From NCBI GenBank assembly GCA_049967655.1, contig JBMFSH010000056.1, positions 1-13,523 of the forward strand: a DNA stretch of 13,523 nt. Direction: 5' to 3'. This DNA comes from Acidobacteriota bacterium. GTDB lineage: Bacteria > Acidobacteriota > UBA4820 > DSQY01. Each line of letters begins with the position of its first letter. Position 1 is the first letter of the stretch. The position numbers were made by a program, and so were the translations under genes. Positions 1 to 13,461 of this stretch are shown here, piece by piece. The notes beneath the pieces were generated by a model. That model was given only the letters and a program-made list of their open reading frames with translations. It was not told where the DNA came from and did not search any database.

Positions 1-45
1 GTGTGACACCCTTTTCCACTGTGCGTGATCTGTCCCGCCTTCCAC
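1..45 (-). CDS. Possible 5' end of a divergent gene truncated by the window edge (MEGGTDHAQWKRVSH...)
   Basis: GTG at 45-43 with a GGAGGAGGGG Shine-Dalgarno-like tract 7 nt upstream; frame is open to the edge. Too short to identify; ATG at 64 in another frame is an alternative. Confidence 0.25.
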   Translation of the reverse strand, partial: MEGGTDHAQWKRVSH

Positions 46-90
46 GATTATTCCCCTCCTCCATCGCGGGATTGGGGACGCCGGCCGCCG

Positions 91-119
91 TTGCGGATGT
101 GAGGCGCTCTGGTTAGAAT
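91..119 (+). promoter_or_regulatory. Putative sigma70 promoter for acp-coaD-aminotransferase
   Basis: TTGCGG (91-96), 17 bp spacer, TAGAAT (114-119), about 22 nt before the ACP start. Confidence 0.5.
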
Positions 120-141
120 GCCCTCTCGAAAGGGAGGAGCC

Positions 142-405
142 ATGGAGGAGCTGAAGGACCGCATCCGGAAACTCATCGTGGAGAAACTCCGGCTGGAAAA
201 CGTGAAGCCCGAGGAGATCCACGACGAGATGCCCCTCTTCGGAGAGGGGCTGGGACTGGACTCCATCGACGCCCTGGAGCTGGTGGTCGCCCTGGAGAAG
301 GAATTCGGGATCAAGATCACCGACGAGGAGGTGGGCGTGAAGGTCTTCCAGAACCTCAACGCGCTGGCTGCCTTCATCCAGGAGAAGGGGGAGGCCGCGC
401 CATGA
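142..405 (+). CDS. Acyl carrier protein / phosphopantetheine-binding protein (87 aa)
   Basis: Acidic small protein with LFGEGLGLDSIDALELVVALEKEFGIKI (DSI Ser is the phosphopantetheine site). GGGAGGAG RBS precedes ATG 142, preferred over ATG 118. Confidence 0.93.
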   Translation: MEELKDRIRKLIVEKLRLENVKPEEIHDEMPLFGEGLGLDSIDALELVVALEKEFGIKITDEEVGVKVFQNLNALAAFIQEKGEAAP

Positions 406-884
406 CCTCGACGGCCATCTGCCCCGGCTCCTTCGATCCCATCACCAACGGCCACCTGGATATCATCCACCGGGCCGCCGCCATGTTCGACCACCTGGTT
501 GTGGCGGTGCTGCGCAACACGGAGAAGAATTGCCTTTTCAGCATCGAGGATCGGGTCACCCTCATCCGCGAGAGCCTCCAGGGGGTGCCGAACGTAGAGG
601 TGGACGCCTTTGACGGCCTGCTCGTGGAATACGTGCGGGCGAAGGGGGCGCGGCACATCCTTCGGGGCATCCGGGCCCTGAGCGACTTCGAGTACGAATT
701 CCAGATGGCCCTCATGAACCGGCGCCTGGCCCCCGAGGTGGACACGGTCTTCCTCATGCCGCGCGAGGAGTACACCTACCTCTCGTCCCGGCTCGTCCGG
801 GAGGTGGCCCGCCTCGGCGGTCCGGTGGAGGGGCTCGTGCCCGCCCCCGTGGCCCGCCTGCTGAAGGAGCGAATGCAACCATGA
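402..884 (+). CDS. coaD: Pantetheine-phosphate adenylyltransferase
   Basis: AICPGSFDPITNGHLDII, RGIRALSDFEYEFQMALMNR and YLSSRLVREVA motifs; 160 aa; ATGA overlap with acp. Confidence 0.98.
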   Translation: MTSTAICPGSFDPITNGHLDIIHRAAAMFDHLVVAVLRNTEKNCLFSIEDRVTLIRESLQGVPNVEVDAFDGLLVEYVRAKGARHILRGIRALSDFEYEFQMALMNRRLAPEVDTVFLMPREEYTYLSSRLVREVARLGGPVEGLVPAPVARLLKERMQP

Positions 885-2053
885 TCGCCGACCGCATGCG
901 CAGGGTGGAGTCTTCCCGTCTGCTCGAGCTCATTGTGGAGGGCCAGCGGATGCGGAAGGAGGGGGCGGATTTCATCGACCTGGGGCCCGGCCAGCCGGAC
1001 TTCCCCGTGCCGGAGCCGATCCTTCAGGCCACGGCGCGGGCACTCCGTGAGGGCCACACCTACTACAGCCCTCCCATGGGCATCCCCGACCTGCGCGAGG
1101 CCGTCGCCCAGCGGTACAACCGCCGCTACGGCGCCAAGTACGGCCCCGCCAACGCCATGGTCACGGCCGGGGCCAAGGGGGCGCTCTACCACATCATCGG
1201 CGCGCACATGGACGAGGGGGGCGAGGTGATCGTCCCGGCCCCCTACTACGTCTCCACGCCGGAGATCGTGAAGCTGTGGGGAGGGACGCCGAGGTTCCTG
1301 CCCTGCCGGATGGAGAACGGCTTCCAGCCGGATCCCGACGAGCTGAGGGCTATGATCTCGCCCGCTACGTGGGGCATCGTCCTCAACTCGCCCTGCAACC
1401 CGACGGGCGCGGTCCTCTCCCGATCCCTCCTCTCCTCGATCCTGGAAATCGCCGATCAAAACCGGCTCTTCGTGATCATGGACGAGTGCTACGACCGCTA
1501 CGTCTACCCGGGGGTGGAGTACGCCACCATGCCGCACTTCGATCCCGAGGCGCGCCGGTCCTTCTTCATCGCGGGCTCCTTCTCCAAGACCTTCTCCATG
1601 ACGGGCTACAGGATGGGGTACGCCATCGGCCCCGCGGAGGGCATCGCCGCCGCGGGGAAGATTCAGTCGCACTCCATGAACGGTCCCACCACCTTCGCCC
1701 AGTTCGGGGCGCTGGAGGCCCTCCGACGCGAGGAGGAGCTCTTCGCGCCGGTGCTGGAGCAGTTCACGCGCAGGCGGCAGGCGATCTGCGATGGGCTAGC
1801 CCAGATCCCTGGGCTTCCCTTCTGCCAGCCACAGGGGGCCTTCTACGTCTTTCCCGACGCCAGGGAGCTGATGAGGAAGATGGGCATCGAACGCACGGAT
1901 GTGCTGGCCTCCACCCTGCTGAAGCAGGCGGGGGTAATGGTCATCCCGGGCTCGGCGCTAGGGCAGGAGGGCTTCGTCCGCATCTCCTTCGCGGTGGACG
2001 AGGAGAAGATCCGGGAGGCCGTGGCGAGGATCCGCAAGGCCGCCGGCGCCTGA
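881..2053 (+). CDS. PLP-dependent aminotransferase class I/II (aspartate aminotransferase-like)
   Basis: GQPDF, LNSPCNPTG, MDECY, SFSKTFSMTGYRMGY (PLP lysine) and GAFYVF motifs; ATGA overlap with coaD. Confidence 0.95.
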   Translation: MIADRMRRVESSRLLELIVEGQRMRKEGADFIDLGPGQPDFPVPEPILQATARALREGHTYYSPPMGIPDLREAVAQRYNRRYGAKYGPANAMVTAGAKGALYHIIGAHMDEGGEVIVPAPYYVSTPEIVKLWGGTPRFLPCRMENGFQPDPDELRAMISPATWGIVLNSPCNPTGAVLSRSLLSSILEIADQNRLFVIMDECYDRYVYPGVEYATMPHFDPEARRSFFIAGSFSKTFSMTGYRMGYAIGPAEGIAAAGKIQSHSMNGPTTFAQFGALEALRREEELFAPVLEQFTRRRQAICDGLAQIPGLPFCQPQGAFYVFPDARELMRKMGIERTDVLASTLLKQAGVMVIPGSALGQEGFVRISFAVDEEKIREAVARIRKAAGA

Positions 2054-2062
2054 ATGGCCGAC

Positions 2063-2095
2063 TGAGAGACGGCGTCTCGCCCCTTTGGGGGCTCA
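2063..2095. terminator. Twin hairpins between convergent genes; possible bidirectional terminator
   Basis: GAGAC-GGC-GTCTC (2066-2078) next to GCCCC-TTTG-GGGGC (2079-2092), between stops at 2053 and 2093; no clear U-tract. Confidence 0.35.
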
Positions 2096-2818
2096 CTCTT
2101 CGGATGGCGGGGTGGGTGCGATCAGACCGTTGCGGGTGGCCCAGAGGAGGGCCTGGGTGCGGTCTGAGACGCCGATCTTCTTGAACAGGTGGTAGAGGTG
2201 GGATTTGACGGTGGCGATGGAGAGCCCTAGAACGCGGGCCATCTCCTGGTTCTTCTGGCCGTCGGCGAGGAGGCGCAGGATGTCCATCTCCCGCGCCGAG
2301 AGAGAGGGATCCGCGCGACGGGCGGAGAGGTAGAATCCTTCCTGGGTCCTGGCCAGCCCCTGGAGGGCGTGCAGGAGGTTCTCCGGCCTCATCACGTCCT
2401 CACCGTCCGCCAGCGCCATGACGAGGTCAAGCAGGTCCTGGCTCGATGCGCCCTTGAGCATATAGCCGGCGGCCCCTCCGGCCACGGCGCTCATCAAAAA
2501 GGCGGGGTCGTCGTAGTTCGTGAGCATGAGCACGGCCGTCGCCGGGCAGCGCTCCTTGATGATGCGGAGGGCTTGCAGCCCGTCCATCTTGGGCATCTTG
2601 ATGTCGAGGATCGCTACGTCGGGCTTGAGTCTCCGGACGACCTGGACGGCCTCCGCCCCGGAAGCCGCCTCGCCGACCACCTGAATTTCGGGGACGGCGA
2701 GGACGCTCCTCAGCCCCTCCCGCACGACGGGATGATCGTCCGCGATCACGACCCGGATGGGCCTGCGGCCTTCGTGCCTTGGCGCGGGGTTCCCGATCGG
2801 AGGTTTCCTCTTATTCAC
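2093..2818 (-). CDS. NarL/FixJ-family response regulator (REC + LuxR HTH)
   Basis: IRVVIADDHPVVREGL, phospho-acceptor ILDIKMP, GYMLK, and HTH LSAREMDILRLLADGQKNQEMARVLGLSIATVKSH. Start uncertain: GTG 2818 has GGAGG 10 nt upstream; the longest ORF starts at 2863. Confidence 0.93.
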   Translation of the reverse strand: MNKRKPPIGNPAPRHEGRRPIRVVIADDHPVVREGLRSVLAVPEIQVVGEAASGAEAVQVVRRLKPDVAILDIKMPKMDGLQALRIIKERCPATAVLMLTNYDDPAFLMSAVAGGAAGYMLKGASSQDLLDLVMALADGEDVMRPENLLHALQGLARTQEGFYLSARRADPSLSAREMDILRLLADGQKNQEMARVLGLSIATVKSHLYHLFKKIGVSDRTQALLWATRNGLIAPTPPSEE

Positions 2819-2830
2819 AGGGTGCAAGCC

Positions 2831-2872
2831 TCCACTCTTCACGCTCCACCCTCCACCCTCCACCCTCCACCA
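2831..2872. repeat. Heptamer tandem repeat (TCCACCC)n, 6 units
   Basis: TCCACTC TTCACGC TCCACCC TCCACCC TCCACCC TCCACCA, between the ftsK stop and the regulator start. Confidence 0.9.
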
Positions 2873-2873
2873 T

Positions 2874-5141
2874 TTAAGCCAGGTCGTCGGGGGAAAGGAA
2901 GACCTCGCGGGGCTTGGCCCCGTCCGCCGGGCCCACCACGCCCTTCTGCTCCATGACGTCCAGCAGCCGGGCCGCGCGGGCGTAGCCGATCCTCATCTTG
3001 CGCTGGAGGTTGCTGGCCGAGGCCACGCCGGTCCTCACCACGAGCTGGAGGGCATCCTCGTAGAGGGGATCTTCGTCGGAGGAGGCGCTCTCTGCGGCTG
3101 CCCCCCCTTCCTCCGCGGCGGGGGCGTCCTTGAGGATGTCCACGTCAAAGGAGGGCTCGCCCTGCCGGGAGAGGTACTGCAGGACCCTCTGCGTCTCCGC
3201 GTTGGAGAGGTAGCCGCCGTGTACCCGCACGAGGCGACCGGAGCCGGGCGGCAGGTAGAGCATGTCCCCCTTGCCCTCCAAGGTTTCAGCCCCGTTCTGA
3301 TCGAGGATGAGCCGGCTCTCGAGCTTCTCCCGCACCTGGAAGGCGATGCGGCTGGACAGGTTGCTCTTGATCACGCCCGTGATCACGTCCCGGGACGGGC
3401 GCTGGGTGGCGAGGATGAGGTGGATGCCCACGGCCCGAGCCATGGCCGACAGGCGGGCGATGGCCGTCTCCACCTCCTTCGCGACGGCCGCCATTAGGTC
3501 GTAGAGCTCGTCGATGACGATCACGATGTAGGGCAGGGGCCGGTTCACGTCGAGCACACCATCGGCCGAGCTGGGGGTCAGGCTCCGGACGTAGGCGTTG
3601 TACTGGTCGATGCTCCGTACCTTGGCGGCCGCCAGGTACTTGTAGCGCTCGGTCATCTCGCGGACCGCCCAGTTGAGGGCGTTGGCCGCCTTCTTGACGT
3701 CGGTCACCACCGGCGTCATGAGGTGGGGGATCTCCTCGTAGACCTTCAGCTCCACCTGCTTGGGGTCGATGAGGATGAACTTCACCTCGTCGGGGCTCGA
3801 CCGGAAGAGGATGCTGTGGATCAGGGCGTTGATCCCCACGCTCTTGCCCGAGCCGGTGGTTCCCGCCACGAGGAGGTGCGGCATCTGGTCGAGGGTGGTG
3901 ATGAAGGGCTCGCCCTCGACGGTCTTGCCCAAGGCGATGGGCAGACGGCCCGGGGTCTCGGCGAAGGCCCTCGATTCGATCAGCTCGCGGAAGGAGATGA
4001 TCTCGCGCTGTTCATTGGGCACCTCGATGCCGATGTGGGACTTGCCGCTCACGCGGTCCACGCGGATGTGGTCGGCCTTGAGCGAGAGGGCCAGGTCCTC
4101 CTCCAGGGAGATGATCCGCGTGTACTTCACCCCGGGGGCGGGCTTGAACTCGAAGATCGTGACGACGGGGCCGGGGTGGATCTCCACCACCTCCCCGGCG
4201 ATGTCGAATTCCATCAGGCGAGCCTCGATGCGGGCGGCCCTCTCGCGAAGGCGCTGCTCGTTGACGGGCGGGCGGGGCCTGGGCGGGTCCAGGAGGTCAC
4301 TGGGGGGCAGGCGGTAGCGGCCGTGGTCGGGTGGTGGTTCCAGGGGCAGCGCCGGCATCGTGGCGGACCGCTCGGAGATGCGCGCGTCCCTCCGGTCCGC
4401 CTGGCGCACCTCCTCCCGCTGGAGCCTCTCCTGCTGCTTCTGGCGGACCTGCTCCATCACCTCCTCGCGGTTCACGCTCTGACGCTTGCGCTCCTTCTTC
4501 AGCTCCCAGTTTGCCCGCATGCGCTGGAAGGGGACGCCGAGTTTTCTGATGGAGCCCAGGAATGAGATCTGCCAGAAGAGCATGAGTGTGAGGAGGACCC
4601 AGACGGGCAGCAGGACCGCCGTACCTCCCGAGCCCAGCGCGCGCTCGATGAGCTCGCCGAGGATGATGCCCACCACGCCTCCCGTGGCGGTGGGGGCGCT
4701 CTGCCCGCACAGGCTGAAGGTCAGGTTTCCGAAGGCCCACTGGAGCAGGGTGGCTTGGCTCAGGACCAGAGACACCCAGAGAAGCAGGCGGCTCGCGCTC
4801 AAGAGCGGTCTTCTCAGCAGGATGAGCACTCCGATGCGTGCTGCCAGGATGGGAATCCAGATGGCTACCATGCCGAAGAGGTGGACCAGGAGCGAGGCCC
4901 AATTGGCCCCCAGGATGCCCACCCAGTTGTTGGGCCTGACCGAGACGTTCCCGAAGGAGAAGGAGCCGGGGTCGTAAGGGTGGTAGGAGAGGAGCGCCAG
5001 AGCCGTGAGGAGGGAGACCGTGAGCGTGAGGATGGCCGAGATCTCCCTGCCGAGCGATAGTCCTTCCGCGCGCTCCACCGGAGAGATGGGCAGCGAACCT
5101 CCCTCGCTGGACGCCTGTTCCCCCTTCGCCGCGCGGCTCAC
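2874..5141 (-). CDS. ftsK: DNA translocase FtsK/SpoIIIE
   Basis: N-terminal TM region (NWVGILGA), GPVVTIFE, PHLLVAGTTGSGKSV Walker A, IDPKQVEL, IDE Walker B, ARAVGIHLILATQRPS and gamma domain LQRKMRIGYARAARL. GTG start with GGAGG RBS. Confidence 0.97.
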   Translation of the reverse strand: MSRAAKGEQASSEGGSLPISPVERAEGLSLGREISAILTLTVSLLTALALLSYHPYDPGSFSFGNVSVRPNNWVGILGANWASLLVHLFGMVAIWIPILAARIGVLILLRRPLLSASRLLLWVSLVLSQATLLQWAFGNLTFSLCGQSAPTATGGVVGIILGELIERALGSGGTAVLLPVWVLLTLMLFWQISFLGSIRKLGVPFQRMRANWELKKERKRQSVNREEVMEQVRQKQQERLQREEVRQADRRDARISERSATMPALPLEPPPDHGRYRLPPSDLLDPPRPRPPVNEQRLRERAARIEARLMEFDIAGEVVEIHPGPVVTIFEFKPAPGVKYTRIISLEEDLALSLKADHIRVDRVSGKSHIGIEVPNEQREIISFRELIESRAFAETPGRLPIALGKTVEGEPFITTLDQMPHLLVAGTTGSGKSVGINALIHSILFRSSPDEVKFILIDPKQVELKVYEEIPHLMTPVVTDVKKAANALNWAVREMTERYKYLAAAKVRSIDQYNAYVRSLTPSSADGVLDVNRPLPYIVIVIDELYDLMAAVAKEVETAIARLSAMARAVGIHLILATQRPSRDVITGVIKSNLSSRIAFQVREKLESRLILDQNGAETLEGKGDMLYLPPGSGRLVRVHGGYLSNAETQRVLQYLSRQGEPSFDVDILKDAPAAEEGGAAAESASSDEDPLYEDALQLVVRTGVASASNLQRKMRIGYARAARLLDVMEQKGVVGPADGAKPREVFLSPDDLA

Positions 5142-5162
5142 CAGACGGGACCTCCGGGCCTA

Positions 5163-5192
5163 AGAATAACGCGCGGACGCGGTTTTCGGCAA
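5163..5192 (-). promoter_or_regulatory. Putative sigma70 promoter for ftsK
   Basis: Minus strand TTGCCG (5192-5187), 18 bp spacer, TATTCT (5168-5163). Confidence 0.35.
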
Positions 5193-5203
5193 GGGCGTTA
5201 GGG

Positions 5204-5261
5204 CGGTGGAGGGTGGAGAGGGGGGCGTCTCCTTCAATCCCCAATTCCCAAGCCCGGCCCC
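5204..5261. repeat. Degenerate heptamer repeats (GGGTGGA-type, then CCAATYC-type)
   Basis: CGGTGGA GGGTGGA GAGGGGG (5204-5224) is the reverse complement of the 2831-2872 unit; it is followed by TCAATCC CCAATTC CCAAGCC CGGCCCC (5234-5261). Confidence 0.5.
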
Positions 5262-5264
5262 GGA

Positions 5265-6167
5265 TCACCCCCTCTTCCGCCCCAGCCGGCAGTGGGGGCG
5301 GAGAGAGCAGGCCCGGCAGAGCTCCTCCACCTGGCGGCGCGGGCACGCCCCCAGGATGCCCAGGCGGGCCAGTCCGAAGTCATACCGGGTGGGGTCCTCT
5401 GGGCAGAAGCGGGCCAGGGAAGCCGTCACCTCCTCGGCGAACCGGCGGTCGGGCGTCCGGCGGCGGGTGAGGCCCAGGGCGTAGGCGATGCGGGCCAGGT
5501 GGGTGTCGATGGGGATGACCAGCTCGGAGGGGGAGAGGCAGTGCCACAGGCCCAGGTCCACCCCGTCGTCCGGCCGGACCACCCAGCGCAGGAACATCCA
5601 CCAGCGCTTGCACGCGGAACCTCCCGAAGGGAGGGACAGGAGCTGCCTCAGCCCCCGGCTGAGCGGGGCGGCCTCGGCTCGGAGGATCGCGGCGAGGGCT
5701 TCGATGCGGTCCCACGGCGAACCCGGAGCCGCCAAGAAGGCCTCCTCCAGCGAGCCGAACCGCCCCAGGACGGCGCCCACGGCCTCCAGAAACCTCCGCA
5801 CGTCGGCCGCAGTCTGGAATCGGTAGGCGGGAGCGGCGAACCCCTCGGGAATCCCCCGCGCGAGGCGCGCCGCGGGCTCGGGGCCGAGCTCGTCCAGCAA
5901 GGCTTTCAGGAAAGCCCCCATGGCCTTCACGTTGCCGTAGGCGAAGAGGGAGGCGATGAGCGCCGCCGCCTCCCGGTCGGCGGGAGAGGCATAGCGCCGC
6001 GCGAAGGCGATGGGGTCGGAGTGCAGGAAGCGCGGACCGTACTGGCCCGCTATCCCTTCGAGCAGTTGGCCGAGAGGCAGGGGGCTCGCCTCGCGGCTCT
6101 GCCCGCGTCCCGATGCGCGTCGGCCTGTTCGGTGGGGGCCCTGGCTCCCAGTTCTTTCCCGCGTCAC
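5265..6167 (-). CDS. TIGR02757/DUF2400-family protein (HhH-GPD-like) with a C-terminal 4-Cys motif
   Basis: Family-like motifs SDPI, FAYGNV, SACKRWWMFLRWVVR, DGVDLGLW, LVIPIDTH and PEDPTRYDF. The true start may be downstream of GTG 6167. Confidence 0.88.
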   Translation of the reverse strand: MTRERTGSQGPHRTGRRASGRGQSREASPLPLGQLLEGIAGQYGPRFLHSDPIAFARRYASPADREAAALIASLFAYGNVKAMGAFLKALLDELGPEPAARLARGIPEGFAAPAYRFQTAADVRRFLEAVGAVLGRFGSLEEAFLAAPGSPWDRIEALAAILRAEAAPLSRGLRQLLSLPSGGSACKRWWMFLRWVVRPDDGVDLGLWHCLSPSELVIPIDTHLARIAYALGLTRRRTPDRRFAEEVTASLARFCPEDPTRYDFGLARLGILGACPRRQVEELCRACSLRPHCRLGRKRG

Positions 6168-6171
6168 ACGC

Positions 6172-6882
6172 TCAGGCGAAGCGGTTGGTCAAAAAGTTGA
6201 TGAGGTCGAGGGCGAACTGCTCCATGTAGGCGTTGAAGGCCTTGAGGCGGCGGCCCAGCAGGTTGTAGCCGATGAGGGCGGGGATTGCGGCGAAAAGGCC
6301 GGCGGCGGTGGTGATGAGGGCCTCCGAGATGCCGGGGGCCACCGAGGAGAGCGTGGCGCTGCCCGAGAGGCCGATGGCCTGGAAGGCCTCCATGATGCCC
6401 CAGACGGTTCCGAAGAGGCCGATGAAGGGGGTGGAGGCCGCGGTGGTGGCCAGGAAGGCCATGCCCGATTCCAGCATGATGGCCTGGTCGCGCATCACCC
6501 GCTGGAGGGTGCGCTCGATGTTCTCCGTGTGGCGGAGCTGGGGGCGCGCCTCCGGGCCGCCGGCCGCGACGGCGCCCGGCGCCAGCTGGTCCTTCACCTG
6601 ATCGTGCAGCTCCCGGTAGGTCTCCATGAACATCTCGCGCAGCGGCGAATCCTTGGCGGTCTTGGCGGAAGCGAGCATGTCGGCCACGCGCTGGGAGCGG
6701 CGGAGGGTTTCGTAGAACTCCTTGGACCGGGCCCGGAGCCGGCGGAGGTTGATGATGCGGTCGATGATGATGCTCCAAGAGACGAGGGAGAAGAGCAGGA
6801 GCACCAAGAGTACGCACTTGGCTATCCAACCGGAGTGGCTCAGGAGTCCCGAAACGCTGGTCGCCGCCAGAGCAAGATACAT
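6172..6882 (-). CDS. tolQ: MotA/TolQ/ExbB proton channel family protein, TolQ-like
   Basis: LFSLVSWSII, FLATTAASTPFIGLFGTVWGIMEAF and VAPGISEALITTAAGLFAAIPA. AGGAGG lies 5 nt before ATG 6882. Confidence 0.88.
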   Translation of the reverse strand: MYLALAATSVSGLLSHSGWIAKCVLLVLLLFSLVSWSIIIDRIINLRRLRARSKEFYETLRRSQRVADMLASAKTAKDSPLREMFMETYRELHDQVKDQLAPGAVAAGGPEARPQLRHTENIERTLQRVMRDQAIMLESGMAFLATTAASTPFIGLFGTVWGIMEAFQAIGLSGSATLSSVAPGISEALITTAAGLFAAIPALIGYNLLGRRLKAFNAYMEQFALDLINFLTNRFA

Positions 6883-6902
6883 CGACACCTCCTACGGCGC
6901 GC

Positions 6903-6931
6903 ATTATAGCGGGCACGGGCTTGGCGAGCAA
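6903..6931 (-). promoter_or_regulatory. Sigma70 promoter for tolQ
   Basis: Minus strand TTGCTC (6931-6926), 17 bp spacer, perfect TATAAT (6908-6903). Confidence 0.65.
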
Positions 6932-7015
6932 GGGCGGGGAAGGGCATGGCGAATCGGGCTCAGGACGGGAGCCTCTACGAGAAAGGGCGGTGCCCCGAGG
7001 AGCGCTCTCCCGAGC

Positions 7016-7132
7016 GCGAAGGGTGGAGAGGAACCGGCACATCGGTCTCTGGAGAGGTCTCCCATCCGCCCCATTTGGGCCTCCACGGCCCACATTGGGC
7101 CCCTCGGGTCTCGCTTTCTCTCCACCTTCCGC
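7016..7132. repeat. 18-bp imperfect inverted repeat in the tolQ / DHS-like divergent intergenic region
   Basis: GCGAAGGGTGGAGAGGAA (7016-7033) pairs with TTTCTCTCCACCTTCCGC (7115-7132): 15/18 Watson-Crick plus 2 G-U. Internal hairpin GGCCCA-CAT-TGGGCC. Confidence 0.55.
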
Positions 7133-7188
7133 CCTTCCTTCCGGCGAATCTTGCCGGTAAAATACCCGCGCACTGGAGAGGAGCCGCC

Positions 7189-8301
7189 ATGCCCAAGAAA
7201 TCGCGCTTTCTGGCGGGAGAGGTCATCTCGCCCAAGCCCATCGTGAAGGGAGCCAGCGTCGTCCGCCTCGTGGAGGAGACCTTCCTGGCCTACAACGCCG
7301 GCCGCCTGCACGAGGGCTGCCGCCTGTTCGCCGAGAAGATGGTCCGCCCGCAGGTCACCGTGGGGATGAGCCTCACGGGGGCCCTCACGCCCGCCGGCGT
7401 GGGGCGCTCGTGCATCGTCCCCCTCATCCAGGCCGGCTTCGTGGACTGGATCGTCTCCACGGGAGCCAACCTCTACCACGACGCCCACCACTCGCTGGAC
7501 CTGGCCCTCCACCGCGGCTCGCCCTTCCTCGACGACACGAGGCTCCGGCAGGAGGGGGTGGTCCGGATCTACGACATCCTCTTCGACTACACGGTGCTGC
7601 TCAAGACCGACGCCTTCTTCCGCAAGATTTTGGAGCAGAATGAATTCCAGCGCTCCATGTCGAGCGCCGAGTTCCACCACCTCGTGGGCAGGTACCTCCG
7701 GGAGCGCGAGAAGGCCCTCGGCGTGGAGCAGCTCTGCACCCTGACCGCGGCCTACGAGGCGGGAGTGCCCATCTTCACCTCCTCGCCCGGCGACTCCTCC
7801 ATCGGCATGAACGTGGCCGCCATGGCCCTCCAGGGCAGCGCCTTCCGCTTCGACGTGAGCGCCGACGTGAACCTCACGGCGGCCATCGTCTGGGAGGCCA
7901 AGCGAAAGGGCGGCCAGTCGGCCGTCGTGATCGCCGGCGGCGGCTCGCCCAAGAACTTCATGCTCCAGACCGAGCCCCAGATCCAGGAGGTTCTGGGCCT
8001 CCCCGAGAAGGGCCACGACTTCTTCCTCCAGATCACCGACGCCCGCCCCGACACGGGGGGCCTCTCCGGCGCCACCCCCTCGGAGGCCGTCTCGTGGGGC
8101 AAGGTGGACCCGAGCCAGCTCCCCGACACGGTGGTCGTCTACACGGACTCCACCATCGCCCTGCCCATCCTCACCGCCTACGCCCTCTCAAAAGCCAAGC
8201 CACGCAAGAGCAAGCGGCTCTACGACCGGCTCGACGGTCTGCACGAGGAGCTGAGGGCCACCTACCTGAAGGGGCTCAAGGCAAGCCGCAAGAGGGGCTG
8301 A
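7189..8301 (+). CDS. Deoxyhypusine synthase-like protein (probable homospermidine/polyamine biosynthesis, SpeY-like)
   Basis: [39 protein letters not shown] and [18 protein letters not shown] (catalytic Lys retained). GAGAGGAG RBS before ATG 7189; 370 aa. Confidence 0.93.
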
Positions 8302-8453: not shown

Positions 8454-8530
8454 CGGGGCGTAGCGCAGCCTGGCAGCGCACTTGGTTCGGGACCAAGGGG
8501 TCGGTGGTTCAAATCCACTCGCCCCGACCA
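8454..8530 (+). tRNA. tRNA-Pro (anticodon CGG)
   Basis: 77 nt; acceptor stem CGGGGCG/CGCCCCG plus ACCA; D arm GCGC..GCGC; anticodon stem CTTGG/CCAAG with loop TTCGGGA (CGG at 8488-8490); T arm GGTGG-TTCAAAT-CCACT. Confidence 0.98.
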
Positions 8531-8544
8531 GATAAATCCTCCAG

Positions 8545-8557
8545 AATCAGGTGGTTA
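8545..8557 (+). promoter_or_regulatory. IHF-binding consensus site at the att junction
   Basis: AATCAG-GTGG-TTA matches WATCAR-N4-TTR, 14 nt from the tRNA end. Confidence 0.6.
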
Positions 8558-9803
8558 CGGAAGCCTCCGAAGCCGGGCTGAGGTTGGAGTCCGCCCGATT
8601 GCAACTTTTTTGCAACTTTGGTTCGAGAATCGTCACCGCCTCCCTCAAACGCGACGGGTGAAGGTGGGCGTAACGCAGGGTCATGGTGAAGTCGGAGTGG
8701 CCCAGAAGTTCGCGGAGAACGGCGAGATCGACGCCGGCGGAAACGAGACGGGAGGCGTAGGTGTGCCGCAGGTCGTGAAAATGAAAGTTCTCGATTCCGG
8801 CGATGGCCAGGGCCACATTCCAGAGGCGCTTGAGATTGTCCTGCCTGCCTGCCGCACTGTTGCCGAAGACGTAGGCCTGTCGGTCCATCGGGCGGGGCAG
8901 TTCGTTGAGAACGGACATGGCCACGGAGTTCAGCGGGATGCACCGGTCCCTCTTCGATTTGGAGCGTGAGGCTGGCACGATGGCCACGGAATTGTGGAAG
9001 TCCACGTCGCTCCAGCGCAAGCCGAGGATCTCGCCCTTCCGCATGCCGGTGTGCAGGGCGAAGAGGACGATCCGCTTCAGGTAGGGCGTGCAGACGTCGA
9101 GAAGGGCCTCCTCCTCTTCCTCGGAGAGATACCGGTATCGCCGATCATCCACGCGGAACAGCTTGATCCGCCCTGCCGGGTTGTACTCGCAGAGGCCCCA
9201 CTCGATGCAGAGGTTGAAGAGTCTCTTCAGCCTGCCGATGACCTCGTCCAGCGCCTTGCGCGAGAGGAACTCCTTCTCTTTGATTCCGGCAAGGGCCTTC
9301 TCGAGTTTCTTTCGCGCCTCCTCTTCGGTGGCAACCACGTGGCGGTGATAGGATCCTTTGAAAGACCAAGTCACCTGCCACTTCCCGTTGGGCAGCTTCT
9401 TCAAACCGCCTCGGTTCCGCTTGCGCGGGACCTTGGAAAGCTCTTGGCGGAACCTTTCCACGTCGCCGCCGGTGATCTTGTCGAGCGCCTTGCCCTTGAA
9501 ATAGTGCGAGGCAAGCCAGTAGCGCGATGCCCAGATGTCGGTCTCCTGTCCGTTCACGCGCATGTGAAGGGCGCTCCATTCCAGGAAGCGCTTCACCGCA
9601 TCTTCGAACTTGGTCTTGACCTCCTTTCTGCGGTCGAGGTAACGGCCTTCCCGCATTTGGGTGTGCACCTTTTCGAGATATGACCGCGCCTCGGTCTTGG
9701 TACGAGCGATATGCCGGGAGTAGCGTCCTTCCGGGTCCTTGTAACTCCACTGCCACCGTCCGTCGGGAAGTTGTTTCAACCCGCGTTCTTTGCGTGTCTC
9801 CAC
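8547..9803 (-). CDS. Tyrosine recombinase / phage-type integrase (418 aa) with a duplicated arm-binding-like domain
   Basis: Catalytic set HTGMRKGE (R), SKSKR (K), FHDLRH (HxxR), LLGH (H), TLRYAH (Y). GTG 9803 has AAAGGAGG 6 nt upstream, preferred over the ORF start at 9899. Confidence 0.96.
8599..8619. repeat. Tandem direct repeat TTGCAACTTT x2; putative integrase arm-type sites
   Basis: Perfect 10-mers at 8599-8608 and 8610-8619 (11-bp period), AT-rich in a GC-rich context, about 70 bp from the tRNA end. Confidence 0.7.
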
Positions 9804-9873
9804 AGATTTCCTCCTTTCTTCGCGGGAACCGAACGGTCCCACTATGGCTCTTTTGGCGAGCCGATTTCCAGTC

Positions 9874-11799
9874 TCAGAGGGGCCTCGTGAGGTCCACAAG
9901 GATGGGCTTGGGACTGTACTTAGAGAGCTGGAGCCAGGCGCCGCGATCGAGGCCTCCGGTGAGGGTGATCTCCCTGGGCCTGAGGACGGGCACGAAGTCC
10001 TCCCGGGCGCTGAGGCTCCCGGTCTCGCTGACGTGGCGAGGGCCGTGCGAGGTGGTGGCCGAGACGGAGCGGGTCCAGAGGCGGCGCTCCCCCAGGCTGC
10101 CGGAGAGCCATCCCGCCGTGCCGGCGCTCGCTCCGTGCAGGATGTATCGGTCCTGGCAGTTGCCCCAGATGCTCGTGCGGGTCGCGGGGTGGAGCTGGTC
10201 CATGTCCTGGAGGATGATCACCGACACGGCGCCGGCGGAGCGCGAGACGCTGATGAAGCGCTCGGTCTGGTGGTGGTCCATGGCCAGCTTGCTGAACTCG
10301 TCCAGGATGAGAAAGAGCCGCGCGCCCCTGTGGCCGTAGCGCCGGTGGAGCTGGTGCTGGAGCAGGCGCACGGCCATGGCCGCGAGGGTCTCTCCCGCGA
10401 GGCCCATGCGCATGGGCGCCGTGAAGACGAGGCACGAGGGCTGCTCGAAGAGGCGCGAGAGCTTGAAGTCGGCCTCGCTCCCCGTCACCCGCTGGATGGC
10501 CGGGTGGGCGAAGGCGTCCAGCTTGTTCCGGACTCCCTGGATGCGCTCGGTGAAGGTGTACTTCTTGCTGTCCGTGGCGGCCTTGAGGTCGGCCTTGATG
10601 CGGGCGAAGGCTTCCTGATCCGCCGAGTCCTTGATCCGGTCCAGGACCTCCTCCAGCTGCTCCTGCGACAGGAAGAGGTCGTGCAGGGCCTTCAGGCTGG
10701 GTGCTTCGAGTTGGGCCACGACCCTCACTCCCGCCTTGAGGAGGCGCAGGTCGAGCAGGTCGAAGTACTGGTAGGCCCCGCCGTTGACCTCGCCGAAGAG
10801 GGCTTCGGCGATGGCGTCCAGCCCTTCGTGGTAGTCCTCGCTCCCGGCCTCCGGCTCCAGCAGGGGGTTCCAGTGGACCGAGGCCCTGCTCAGCGGATTG
10901 AAGACCCAGAGCTTGGGGGCGGGATATCCGGCGCGCCCGAGCCGGATGTGCTGGGCCATGTCGCCCTTGAAGTCCAGGACGAAGACCGACTGTCCCTTGC
11001 CCGGCAGCTCGCGGCTCCAGGGCAGCGCGAGCGAGGTGGTCTTGCCCGAGCCCGTGGGGGCCACCACGACCGTCTGCTGGAGCTTGGCGATCTCAGGCGC
11101 GACGAAGTAGTTTGTGACGCGGCCTTCATCGTAGAGACGCCCGATGCAAAGCCGGCCGCGGAGCGGCTTAGACTCCGGCGCGGGCCAGGAGGACGCCCTC
11201 ACGAGCAGTCCCGTGCGCTTCAGATCCGAAAGCCTCGCCGCGCCCGAGAGGTCCATGAGGTCATAGGCGTGAGGGTTGCGCAGGATGTCCTCCGTCTTCA
11301 GGTTCGCCCGAGAGACGCGGACCAGCCCCGCGAGAAACAGAACCACCGCCGAGCCGCCGAGCGCCGTGACCTTCCACCAGACCAGAGTGAAGCGCGCCGT
11401 GGCGACGGGGAGGATCACGTCGGGGAGAAAGTACGCCAGACCCAGCACGAAGGCCGAGCCGATGGCCCAGAGGGCAGCACCCTGCCCAGGCCGCCAAAGG
11501 CGGCGGCTCATGCCGTAGACCAGTGGGCTGAAAGCGAGCGCCGAGGCCCCCAAAAGGAAGAGCGCGGGGTGGGCGAGATAGGGGTTCAATACGACTTTGA
11601 TCAGGACGTTGTGGTCCCACGCGAGAAGCCGCCCGATGATGAAGGGCCGCGTACCCCTGGCGGCGTGGAGGTAGGGGGCCAGCTCAAAGGCCCCGCCTAT
11701 CCACAGGGCCACGGCGAAGACCACTGCCCCCGCGATGATAAGGTTCCGTTCAAACTCTTCCGATGGGTGCTCCAGCCTGGGCTGGGATGTGTTGGCCAT
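9874..11799 (-). CDS. Type IV secretion coupling protein (VirD4/TraD/TraG-like)
   Basis: Several N-terminal hydrophobic segments, Walker A VVAPTGSGKT, VLDFKGD, WNPL, Walker B FLILDEF, SRSAG..IILQDMDQL and IWGNC. GGGAG RBS; adjacent to a relaxase. Confidence 0.9.
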   Translation of the reverse strand: MANTSQPRLEHPSEEFERNLIIAGAVVFAVALWIGGAFELAPYLHAARGTRPFIIGRLLAWDHNVLIKVVLNPYLAHPALFLLGASALAFSPLVYGMSRRLWRPGQGAALWAIGSAFVLGLAYFLPDVILPVATARFTLVWWKVTALGGSAVVLFLAGLVRVSRANLKTEDILRNPHAYDLMDLSGAARLSDLKRTGLLVRASSWPAPESKPLRGRLCIGRLYDEGRVTNYFVAPEIAKLQQTVVVAPTGSGKTTSLALPWSRELPGKGQSVFVLDFKGDMAQHIRLGRAGYPAPKLWVFNPLSRASVHWNPLLEPEAGSEDYHEGLDAIAEALFGEVNGGAYQYFDLLDLRLLKAGVRVVAQLEAPSLKALHDLFLSQEQLEEVLDRIKDSADQEAFARIKADLKAATDSKKYTFTERIQGVRNKLDAFAHPAIQRVTGSEADFKLSRLFEQPSCLVFTAPMRMGLAGETLAAMAVRLLQHQLHRRYGHRGARLFLILDEFSKLAMDHHQTERFISVSRSAGAVSVIILQDMDQLHPATRTSIWGNCQDRYILHGASAGTAGWLSGSLGERRLWTRSVSATTSHGPRHVSETGSLSAREDFVPVLRPREITLTGGLDRGAWLQLSKYSPKPILVDLTRPL

Positions 11800-11836: not shown

Positions 11837-13141
11837 TTACCAGTGTTCAGTTCCGTCCTCGTGGCCCTCGCGGTGCCGGGGCCGTTCCTGCCTCAGATCC
11901 TCGCGGGTGGGAAGTCCCTCGGTGCCCCGCGCGCCGTGCGGGTCCCGCGTCGCGGACTCTACTTGGCGCATGAGGGCCGTGACGAGGCCTCCCGCTTCTC
12001 GCCCCGCTGCCCGGGTGACGCTGGCCGCGACGGCCACCTCATGGAGCTCGGCGTTCTCCTGGAGGCGGCTGGAGATTCGGTCGGGCGCGCCTTGGTAGAG
12101 CCGCTGGGCGGAGACGTCCTGGTGCATGAGTCCCTGATGGTCTTTGAAAGAGAAGCGGTAGAGACCGTCCTCGCCTAACTTCGCCGCCACACCCTTGCCC
12201 TCGAGGGTTTCACGGAAGGCCTCATGGTGCTTGGAGGTCCGGAGGGCCTCGATGATCCGGCCCCGAAGGTCTCGCTGCCAGGAGTAGCGGCCACTCTGCT
12301 CCTCCTTGAGGCGCTTGCGGTACCCTTCCGGGTCCTGCCGCAATTGCTCCTTCTGCTGCGCGAACTTCTCCACCAGGTGGACCCGCTGGTAACTCTCGCC
12401 AAGCCTGGCTTCGCGTGAGGCGTGATGTTTCCCGCCCCGGTCGGTCATGCTGTAGCTGTACTTCTGACCCCGGATGCGAAGCTCCACGCCTCGCTCCTTG
12501 AGCCGTGCCTTGAACTCCTCCTCGGAGAACGCCCGCCTCCCCGCCTCGCGGATGCGGTCCTGCATGTCCAGCTTCCACGAGTATCTGCTCCCGCCCCGCT
12601 CGGCCTGGCGGATGAAGTTGTCCGAGGGCCGGTGCGGGTCTCTCACCCGGTCCAGCTCCCGCTGGATACCGTGGGCCCTGGCCAGCCGGTCGTTCACGTC
12701 CCGGAGACGGTCGATATTCCGGCTGTCGCTGTTGTACTTTCGCCCGTCCAGCCCCGTGGCGTTCCAAACCACGTGGGCGTGGGGGTGGCCTTTCTCGCCG
12801 TGGACGACCACGAGAACGTCATGGCGGTCCGCGATACCCGCCTCCTTCGCCCACGCTTCGCCGTAGTCGCGAATCTTGGCGTGGTCCGGGGTGCCGTCCG
12901 GCTTGGCCAGATCCCCCAGGTCGTGGCGCTCGAAGCTCAAGGCCACGTGGTAGTATTGGCGGGCCCCGTCCCTGGCGTAGAAGTCCCGCGTCTCCCGGAA
13001 CTCCCGCTCGATGGACTCGGCGTCCCGGCCGACCACGTTGCCGCCCACCATCTGGACCCGGTCGCCGGCTTGGTTTTGGTTCAAGAGGTAGGAGATCATT
13101 TTGGAGCTGTCGCCTCCGACGGAGATCTTTAGGATGGGCAT
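11837..13141 (-). CDS. Relaxase / mobilization nuclease (MOB_P, VirD2/MobA-like), 434 aa
   Basis: Motif I MISYL (catalytic Tyr), motif II YYHVALSF, motif III VHGEKGHPHAHVVWN (HUH). ATG 13141 is 2 nt after the mobC stop. Confidence 0.92.
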   Translation of the reverse strand: MPILKISVGGDSSKMISYLLNQNQAGDRVQMVGGNVVGRDAESIEREFRETRDFYARDGARQYYHVALSFERHDLGDLAKPDGTPDHAKIRDYGEAWAKEAGIADRHDVLVVVHGEKGHPHAHVVWNATGLDGRKYNSDSRNIDRLRDVNDRLARAHGIQRELDRVRDPHRPSDNFIRQAERGGSRYSWKLDMQDRIREAGRRAFSEEEFKARLKERGVELRIRGQKYSYSMTDRGGKHHASREARLGESYQRVHLVEKFAQQKEQLRQDPEGYRKRLKEEQSGRYSWQRDLRGRIIEALRTSKHHEAFRETLEGKGVAAKLGEDGLYRFSFKDHQGLMHQDVSAQRLYQGAPDRISSRLQENAELHEVAVAASVTRAAGREAGGLVTALMRQVESATRDPHGARGTEGLPTREDLRQERPRHREGHEDGTEHW

Positions 13142-13143
13142 GC

Positions 13144-13461
13144 TCAGCCCAGAAGGATCTTCATGAGGGACTCGACGCCGCTCCGGATGGCCGCCGTCTC
13201 GCGCAGGTCCACCCGGCCCATGTTGGCCTGGTGGGTGAGCTGGTTGAGGTTTCGCCCGAAGCCCTTGATGGTCCGGTGCACGTCCGCGGGGAACCGGGGG
13301 ACGGCCTTCAGGCACGACCCCATGGCCAGTTCCCTCAGCAGGCGAGCCGGCTTCATGTTCGCGATCGCGGCCTGTTGCCGGATGTGCCCCAGCTCCTCAG
13401 CCGAAAGACGGAGGGTAAGCCGGTGGGGACGCCTTCTCTGGATGCGTTCGATGGGACTCAT
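13144..13461 (-). CDS. mobC: Relaxosome accessory protein MobC (ribbon-helix-helix)
   Basis: RLTLRLSAEE..IRQQA..ARLLRELA RHH pattern and GRNLNQLTHQAN signature; AGGAG RBS; directly upstream of the relaxase. Confidence 0.9.
   Translation of the reverse strand: MSPIERIQRRRPHRLTLRLSAEELGHIRQQAAIANMKPARLLRELAMGSCLKAVPRFPADVHRTIKGFGRNLNQLTHQANMGRVDLRETAAIRSGVESLMKILLG

Follow-up and report, generated by a model that had tools for sequence, protein, structure and literature searches.

Can a tyrosine integrase carry a second arm-binding (AB) domain inside its own core-binding (CB) domain, and what would such a domain do? The question is raised by int, a gene in a 13,523-nucleotide stretch of an Acidobacteriota genome (the window; positions 1 to 13,523 of contig JBMFSH010000056.1, assembly GCA_049967655.1). 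An original prediction, made from the letters of the window, held that the N-terminal AB-like segment of this integrase recurs within the CB domain, giving two arm-DNA readers per monomer. Here, we confirm that int holds an internally inserted duplicate of its own AB domain.

A duplicated arm-binding domain in int

The integrase gene (8547..9803, minus strand) encodes 418 amino acids from a GTG at 9803, the likely start, at which homologues also begin; an AGGAGG ribosome-binding site (9810..9815, minus strand) lies 6 nt before it, and this site, the GTG and the homologue starts speak against a longer open reading frame from a TTG at 9899. The protein matches PF00589 (E=1.6e-33; 116 bits for the catalytic domain, tyrosine recombinase family) and, by fold, the Tn1549 and lambda integrases (Z 19.8). 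Its catalytic (CAT) domain (8634..9140, minus strand) holds R255, K282, H343, R346, H369 and Y378, all in one frame as originally proposed, and all invariant or nearly so among homologues. The CB domain comprises helices A to C (residues 64 to 122; 9438..9614, minus strand; from the model and matches to 2kd1, 3nrw, and 3lys) and helix D with the domain's end (residues 180 to 212; 9168..9266, minus strand; from alignment and model). It is four-helical in the model (helices 66-80, 83-98, 112-122, and 182-201), with Z 14 to 15 against isolated CB domains. By its catalytic residues and four-helix CB domain, int is a tyrosine recombinase of the phage integrase family; its domain order is AB-CB-CAT, and the model aligned to lambda Int from residue 1. 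In RNA sequencing, just 169 bases of int were covered, which says nothing about its expression.

The N-terminal AB-type domain, AB1 (residues 7 to 52; 9648..9785, minus strand; predicted three strands plus helix), recurs as AB2 (residues 131 to 172; 9288..9413, minus strand), both within one intact frame and where the original prediction had placed them. BLASTP aligned them with 23/47 residues identical (49%; E=1e-13), their local score was 125, whereas shuffled sequences averaged 29 and never exceeded 53 (0/5000 shuffles as high), and int gave two AB profile matches (107 and 53 bits); the earlier hand count of 19/38 was the same on recount. Two AB-type domains per monomer are thus borne out.

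AlphaFold2 (68-sequence alignment; mean pLDDT 85, AB1 and AB2 blocks 86 to 93) modeled AB1 as strands 9-11, 17-22, and 28-33 with helix 36-52 (pLDDT 87 to 93) and AB2 as strands 132-136, 142-148, and 151-157 with helix 160-172. AB2 is homologous to AB1 and is predicted to share its three-strand-plus-helix fold (pLDDT about 90 for both segments), in line with the original prediction. The model places AB2 between CB helices C (112-122) and D (182-201), with the insert ends paired (bridges at 126 and 179). The whole insert in this αC-αD loop, linkers included, spans residues 123 to 179 (9267..9437, minus strand) by loop comparison and model. A single-sequence model, although poor (pLDDT 44.5), shows the same two units.

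Single contigs in 3/3 DNA runs (one study) cover both copies without joints. These contigs and the 26 homologue clusters with AB2 rule out an assembly artefact, and a recent duplication is likewise rejected. Over 27 AB2 copies, identity to the AB1 of the same protein was 33% and to other AB1s 34%, which gives no hint that the domain has been copied anew again and again.

Against Pfam, neither AB1 alone nor AB2 alone matched any family, AB families included; PHROGs gave weak matches only for AB2 and none for AB1, and AB2 scored 0.79 against the Atlas, near PF02920 clusters. With the low-confidence single-sequence model, AB2 reached a best Z of 5.1 or lower against solved structures, the AP2/GCC-box structure 2gcc matched residues 3-55 (Z 5.2), the tandem AP2 domains of Plasmodium SIP2 (6sy0) matched across both copies (Z 4.6), and a wide fold search gave no Z above 5.9. 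The 2gcc and 6sy0 values lie within the range of common arrangements and are leads only.

In three close pairs, dN/dS of AB2 was 0.096, 0.063, and 0.093 (catalytic domain, 0.07 to 0.08; AB1, 0.02 to 0.06); in three distant pairs near saturation, it was 0.28, undefined, and 0.50. The close-pair values (0.06 to 0.10) indicate purifying selection on AB2, as had been argued for the second copy. Net charge is +7.5 in AB2 and +7.8 in AB1. Among the 27 AB2 copies (AB1-style numbering), R30 is present in 26, K/R10 in 23, K/R16 in 24, and S/T20 in 24; W17, A39, and L43 occur in 27/27, and the hydrophobic core is kept. Compared with the AB1 consensus, one sheet face of AB2 is 56% identical, its helix end and tail 17%; AB2 has kept the basic sheet residues and lost AB1's helix tail. 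The sheet face would be the DNA-reading one in AB1 and AB2, as in Tn916 and AP2 structures; a literature search for an AB sheet face reading DNA gave nothing usable. Q18 and Y28 hardly vary in AB1 but differ from one AB2 subclade to another; both are kept in the window's AB2, whose putative reading face is almost unchanged (K134, L136, K140, Q142, T144, Y152, and R154). The stretch of the lambda arm domain that corresponds to the helix tail has regulatory contacts, according to the accessible text of PMC9791396.

The αC-αD loop across the integrase family

Homologues were surveyed for presence or absence of the insert. Out of 73 clusters, 26 had AB2 (one being the window's own), 5 had an unrelated helical domain of about 78 amino acids in the same αC-αD loop, and 42 had a short loop. 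Loop lengths in the family are 4 to 23, 56 to 64, and 92 to 94 amino acids; the longer of the short loops are often basic. The original view that this position is normally a short loop is right for most relatives (4 to 23 amino acids, 42/73 clusters) but not for the family as a whole, in which the loop is a variable slot accepting AB2, the helical domain, or neither.

The same genome also has a helical-insert integrase (L002:483-1925; G000:C24:483) at tRNA-Arg. Integrases with this insert occur at L002, L012, L091, L124, and L177 and in P0019 and P0084; those with a called tRNA lie at tRNA-Arg. The helical insert is conserved among the relatives that have it and had no match in Pfam or PHROGs, with a best E of 0.13 among PDB sequences and a best score of 0.82 in the Atlas. 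A likeness to DnaD-type C-terminal domains was considered, to which the searches lent no support.

Among 146 further, distant representatives, 0 had two AB matches, 78 lacked any AB match, which points to low sensitivity at this distance, and 1 had the helical insert, the loop being measurable in 55. Queried by itself, the AB2 region retrieved 5 proteins, none of them new. Genome searches (cut-off, E<=1e-12; at most 7 candidates scored per genome) found the integrase family in 17/24 other genomes of the host's family and in 0/376 other genomes of the phylum; the named relatives are Acidobacteriota metagenome-assembled genomes.

In a tree generated by a quick method (73 rows, loop omitted; 8 outgroups, P0020 and P0074 left out), AB2 proteins form several well-supported subclades that are interspersed with short-loop and helical proteins inside one larger group. 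The tree requires four insert-state changes, two of them forced by well-supported branches, and short-loop proteins (P0045, 47, 48, 54, 57, 58, 72, and 73) are nested among AB2 clades; a single AB2 clade was not rejected (p-AU, 0.066). All 27 AB2 copies have the short hairpin form. The simplest reading would be one old AB duplication followed by losses or swaps.

Three unusual sequences came up in the searches: a broken AB2 integrase at tRNA-Arg(ACG), interrupted by a stop codon within AB2 and shortened by a large deletion (L014:4295-4997); a 4111-amino-acid protein with 10 stretches matched to the N-terminal query (P0110); and a 390-amino-acid protein in which the integrase is preceded by an unrelated N-terminal region of about 185 amino acids (P0179).

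The mobile element, its arm sites, and adjoining genes

The 3' end of int lies just downstream of a tRNA-Pro(CGG) gene (8454..8530, plus strand), the integration target. A 118-bp direct repeat (8486..8603, plus strand), beginning in the anticodon loop at 8486, has an exact second copy at positions 4174-4291 of contig C3, the element's other end, and run X2 contains the same junction sequence as a loose end at 8486. From the tRNA 3' end, the repeat (L001:4174-4291; G000:C3) continues for 73 bp, reaching the C-terminal part of int, and ends inside the first arm repeat; it is probably what remains of an earlier element copy. Upstream of int, profile searches identified a TraG/VirD4-like type IV coupling protein (9874..11799), a MobA/VirD2-like relaxase (11837..13141), and a MobC/NikA relaxosome accessory protein (13144..13461), all on the minus strand. 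Besides int and its two att ends, the element has the relaxase, MobC, and the coupling protein, the middle between C56 and C3 being unassembled; it would fit an integrative mobilisable element whose arms follow a P2-like two-plus-two layout. The far end on C3 (L001:219-3964) carries as cargo an HTH_3 gene, a ParA-type ATPase accompanied by a small partner, and an AbiEii nucleotidyltransferase whose partner gene lies upstream. Positions 1-8301 of the window hold host genes, among them a homospermidine biosynthesis gene before the tRNA (NF001980, above cut-off) and an FtsK-like gene; judged by their translations, other genes there probably encode CoaD, acyl carrier protein, a TolQ-like protein, an aminotransferase, and a response regulator.

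A tRNA was called at 42 of the 50 distinct loci in the family, leaving 8 without. Insert-bearing loci were at tRNA-Pro or tRNA-Arg in 15/15 cases (11 AB2, with two near-duplicates, and 4 helical), compared with 1/27 short-loop loci. The exception, P0070, sits at tRNA-Pro with a short loop (23 amino acids), so the insert is not strictly needed at tRNA-Pro/Arg. The association may be clade history, for which one ancestral target shift would account.

Two arm-type repeats stand in tandem, at a period of 11 bp, inside the 3' end of int (8597..8619, minus strand), their arm function being suggested by position and family-wide conservation. A matching pair lies at about 4022-4044 of contig C3, one pair on either side of the core, so that arm-type direct repeats appear to flank the core on both sides, as in heterobivalent integrases. 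The strict arm motif occurred 5 times in 3.1 Mb; reversed-pattern controls gave 0 in 9/10 genomes. Because the int-side pair lies inside the coding sequence, it is seen in the protein as the family's conserved C-terminal KLQxxCN motif. Between the tRNA and the arm pair is an IHF-like site (8545..8557, plus strand; one mismatch to the consensus). The same genome has two further family arm pairs (G000:C5:111779 and C57:481), one of them beside tRNA-Ser with no intact int seen.

The same arm consensus at the 11-bp period was found in 10/10 AB2, 4/4 helical, and 22/26 short-loop loci. The distance from int-side arm to anticodon was 111 to 114 bp in insert loci and 91 to 92, 114 to 116, or 135 to 139 bp in short-loop loci; taken together, these distances step by about two helical turns (91-92, 111-116, and 135-139 bp; L007, L008, L016, L088, and others). 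On the far side (P arm), where loci other than this genome's own were assigned to insert class via tRNA target alone, the core-to-arm distance was 126 to 130 bp in 20/24 arms of both kinds (others: 120, 120, 137, and 149), and the best extra arm-like score averaged 3.3 in 10 Pro/Arg arms versus 4.4 in 12 others (true sites, median 14.3). In the arms examined (10 Pro/Arg and 12 others for sites; 24 P arms for spacing), neither extra arm-like sites nor AB2-specific spacing was found, so AB2 has no detectable site of its own. The suggestion that one two-reader monomer binds both tandem repeats found no support, since 22/26 short-loop loci have the same pair, with no spacing or extra sites peculiar to AB2.

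It had also been suggested that AB2 substitutes for an excisionase, which we now regard as very improbable. As the idea would have it, no xis-like gene adjoins the window's int, nor could one be assigned to this fragmented element; an HTH_17 gene on contig C77 of the same genome may belong to another element. HTH_17 is a class used for identifying excisionases, in the accessible text of PMC8138268. However, the AB2 element L009 encodes an HTH_17 protein in its replication module (E=4e-12), HTH_17-like genes are present in loci of other insert classes, and the P arms are alike across classes. In one query over all classes, an HTH_17-like gene lay directly upstream of int in only 3/29 family loci, so a missing xis next to int (26/29) is the family norm. 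At L097, L100, and L102, from a short-loop subclade, an HTH_17 gene stands directly before int; some AB2 elements have a free arm-domain gene at that place.

This free arm-domain gene (61 amino acids) lies directly before int in L009 (9361-9546), L083 (about 2214-2399), and L187 (G006:C25:33869-34054), AB2 loci from two subclades. It has its own ribosome-binding site, and its last codons supply that of int. Six clusters (61 to 73 amino acids) are similar to its product, and L009 and L187 differ by a pN of 0.076 versus a pS of 0.41, indicating purifying selection. The window's element has no such gene before int.

Role and significance of the second domain

We give a probability of about 0.5 to the reading in which AB2 is an auxiliary DNA grip of relaxed specificity, held in a swappable slot, while AB1 does the usual arm reading. 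Tethered in the loop before CB helix D, AB2 would take an extra hold of DNA and stabilise the recombination complex, and AB1 alone would likely read the four arm repeats; for AB2, we infer DNA binding, low specificity, closeness to core DNA, and a gain in recombination. Judged by the anatomy of its element, int would otherwise work as heterobivalent integrases of the lambda/P2 type do, its carrier being an integrative mobilisable element at tRNA-Pro. An auxiliary grip is supported because dN/dS of AB2 resembles that of the catalytic domain in close pairs and because the basic sheet is kept and the AB1 helix tail lost; relaxed specificity is suggested because Q18 and Y28 vary and mean pairwise AB2 identity in the family is 38% (AB1, 71%) while the arm repeat is constant. 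Accessible text of PMC5871717 has N150 and R153 of Tn1549 Int touching DNA at the crossover boundary; by extrapolation from the match range, the helix after AB2 would correspond roughly to that segment. Given the helical insert, viewing the slot as DNA-facing is partly an argument by analogy. As far as the accessible text of PMC11631766 goes, insertion of a DNA-binding domain inside engineered Cre-type recombinases works. With 42/73 clusters lacking any insert, the insert is not generally needed.

Against an auxiliary grip, the near-unchanged reading face of the window's AB2 would equally fit true arm recognition. AB2 might then be a second arm reader that takes the same repeats in an alternative register, making the enzyme trivalent, with competition between AB1 and AB2, perhaps joined by the free arm-domain protein, helping to set integration versus excision. 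R30 in 26/27 copies agrees with this, as do the selected free arm-domain gene in L009, L187, and L083, its six similar clusters, and the capacity of lambda's free N-terminal domain to modulate the catalytic part (PMC9791396, accessible text). Yet each element yielded only two arm pairs, like relatives without AB2, and neither extra sites nor changed spacing; other AB2 subclades alter Q18 and Y28 under an unchanged arm repeat, and the window's element lacks the free gene before int, all of which leaves a second arm reader a doubtful though tenable alternative. It is unlikely, in our view, that these are naturally trivalent integrases in a wider sense, the loop being a plug-in slot for a second DNA reader needed at tRNA-Pro/Arg, with inserted and free arm-domain copies forming an undescribed control of recombination direction.

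The much faster drift of AB2 than of AB1, the short-loop proteins nested among AB2 clades (four tree changes), which suggest losses or swaps, and the fit of an unrelated helical domain to the same loop would agree with AB2 being a tolerated passenger, conserved because it must fold inside a host domain, or else a protein-contact module docking on a subunit or accessory protein. We hold this to be quite unlikely: a passenger would be free to disappear, yet AB2 persists in 26 clusters over deep divergence with dN/dS <=0.1 in close pairs, and its surface Arg and Lys residues are kept while it has lost the helix tail, which would be the more probable place for protein contacts.

Among known systems, int resembles lambda Int (whole-chain fold match: Z 19.8, rmsd 12.3, 320 aligned) and P2/HP1-type integrases in its AB-CB-CAT order, RKHRHY residues, tRNA target, and two arms each with two direct repeats, a layout described for P2-like phages in the accessible text of PMC3931495. 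HP1 Int has the closest catalytic domain by identity (32%; Z 17.4, rmsd 2.9, 160 aligned), the P2/HP1 comparison being one of identity and fold similarity of catalytic domains. Unlike in lambda, P2, and HP1, the second AB here lies inside CB, the carrier is a mobilisable element rather than a phage, and relatives have a helical domain in its place or an additional, free AB gene. With Tn916/Tn1549 Int it shares the three-strand-plus-helix AB (CB plus CAT: Z 19.8, rmsd 3.3, 271 aligned) but differs in being site-specific at a tRNA, in its second AB, and in lacking a CAT β-hairpin insertion in the model: the accessible text of PMC8138268 gives the IntTn916 subgroup a β-stranded insertion between CAT strands 2 and 3, where our model has only strands 273-276 and 287-290. 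RitA recombinases also show natural duplication of a DNA-binding domain, but of CB and in series (PMC8138268, accessible text); here AB is duplicated and inserted within CB. Zinc-finger insertion recombinases (PMC11631766, accessible text) likewise carry a DNA-binding domain inside a tyrosine recombinase, but an engineered one, at Cre residues 278/279 in the catalytic domain, whereas here it is natural and in CB.

PMC8138268 describes, in its accessible part, six AB-containing integrase subgroups, each with one N-terminal AB; int departs from this rule of one N-terminal AB per chain and is still within the wider AB-containing group. The main text of that paper contains neither 'duplicat' nor 'two AB', and its appendix or datasets might show such proteins. 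In the open literature, subscription papers being outside our scope, we found no description of a natural integrase with AB inside CB, which agrees with the original impression; the architecture is real, under selection, and restricted to a narrow clade, and it is apparently undescribed. Its spread is narrow, with one family of Acidobacteriota-type genomes among those searched.

Published accounts give arm-binding integrases a single arm domain at the N-terminus, and models of the intasome take four of these as their basis. Here, a loop beside the core-reading helix accepts folded domains of 45 to 80 amino acids, which may help the design of integrases that carry further DNA readers. The clade offers a comparison series for the role of the arm domain: on the same arm sequence and spacing, its members have up to two additional AB copies (inserted and free), none, or another domain in that loop.
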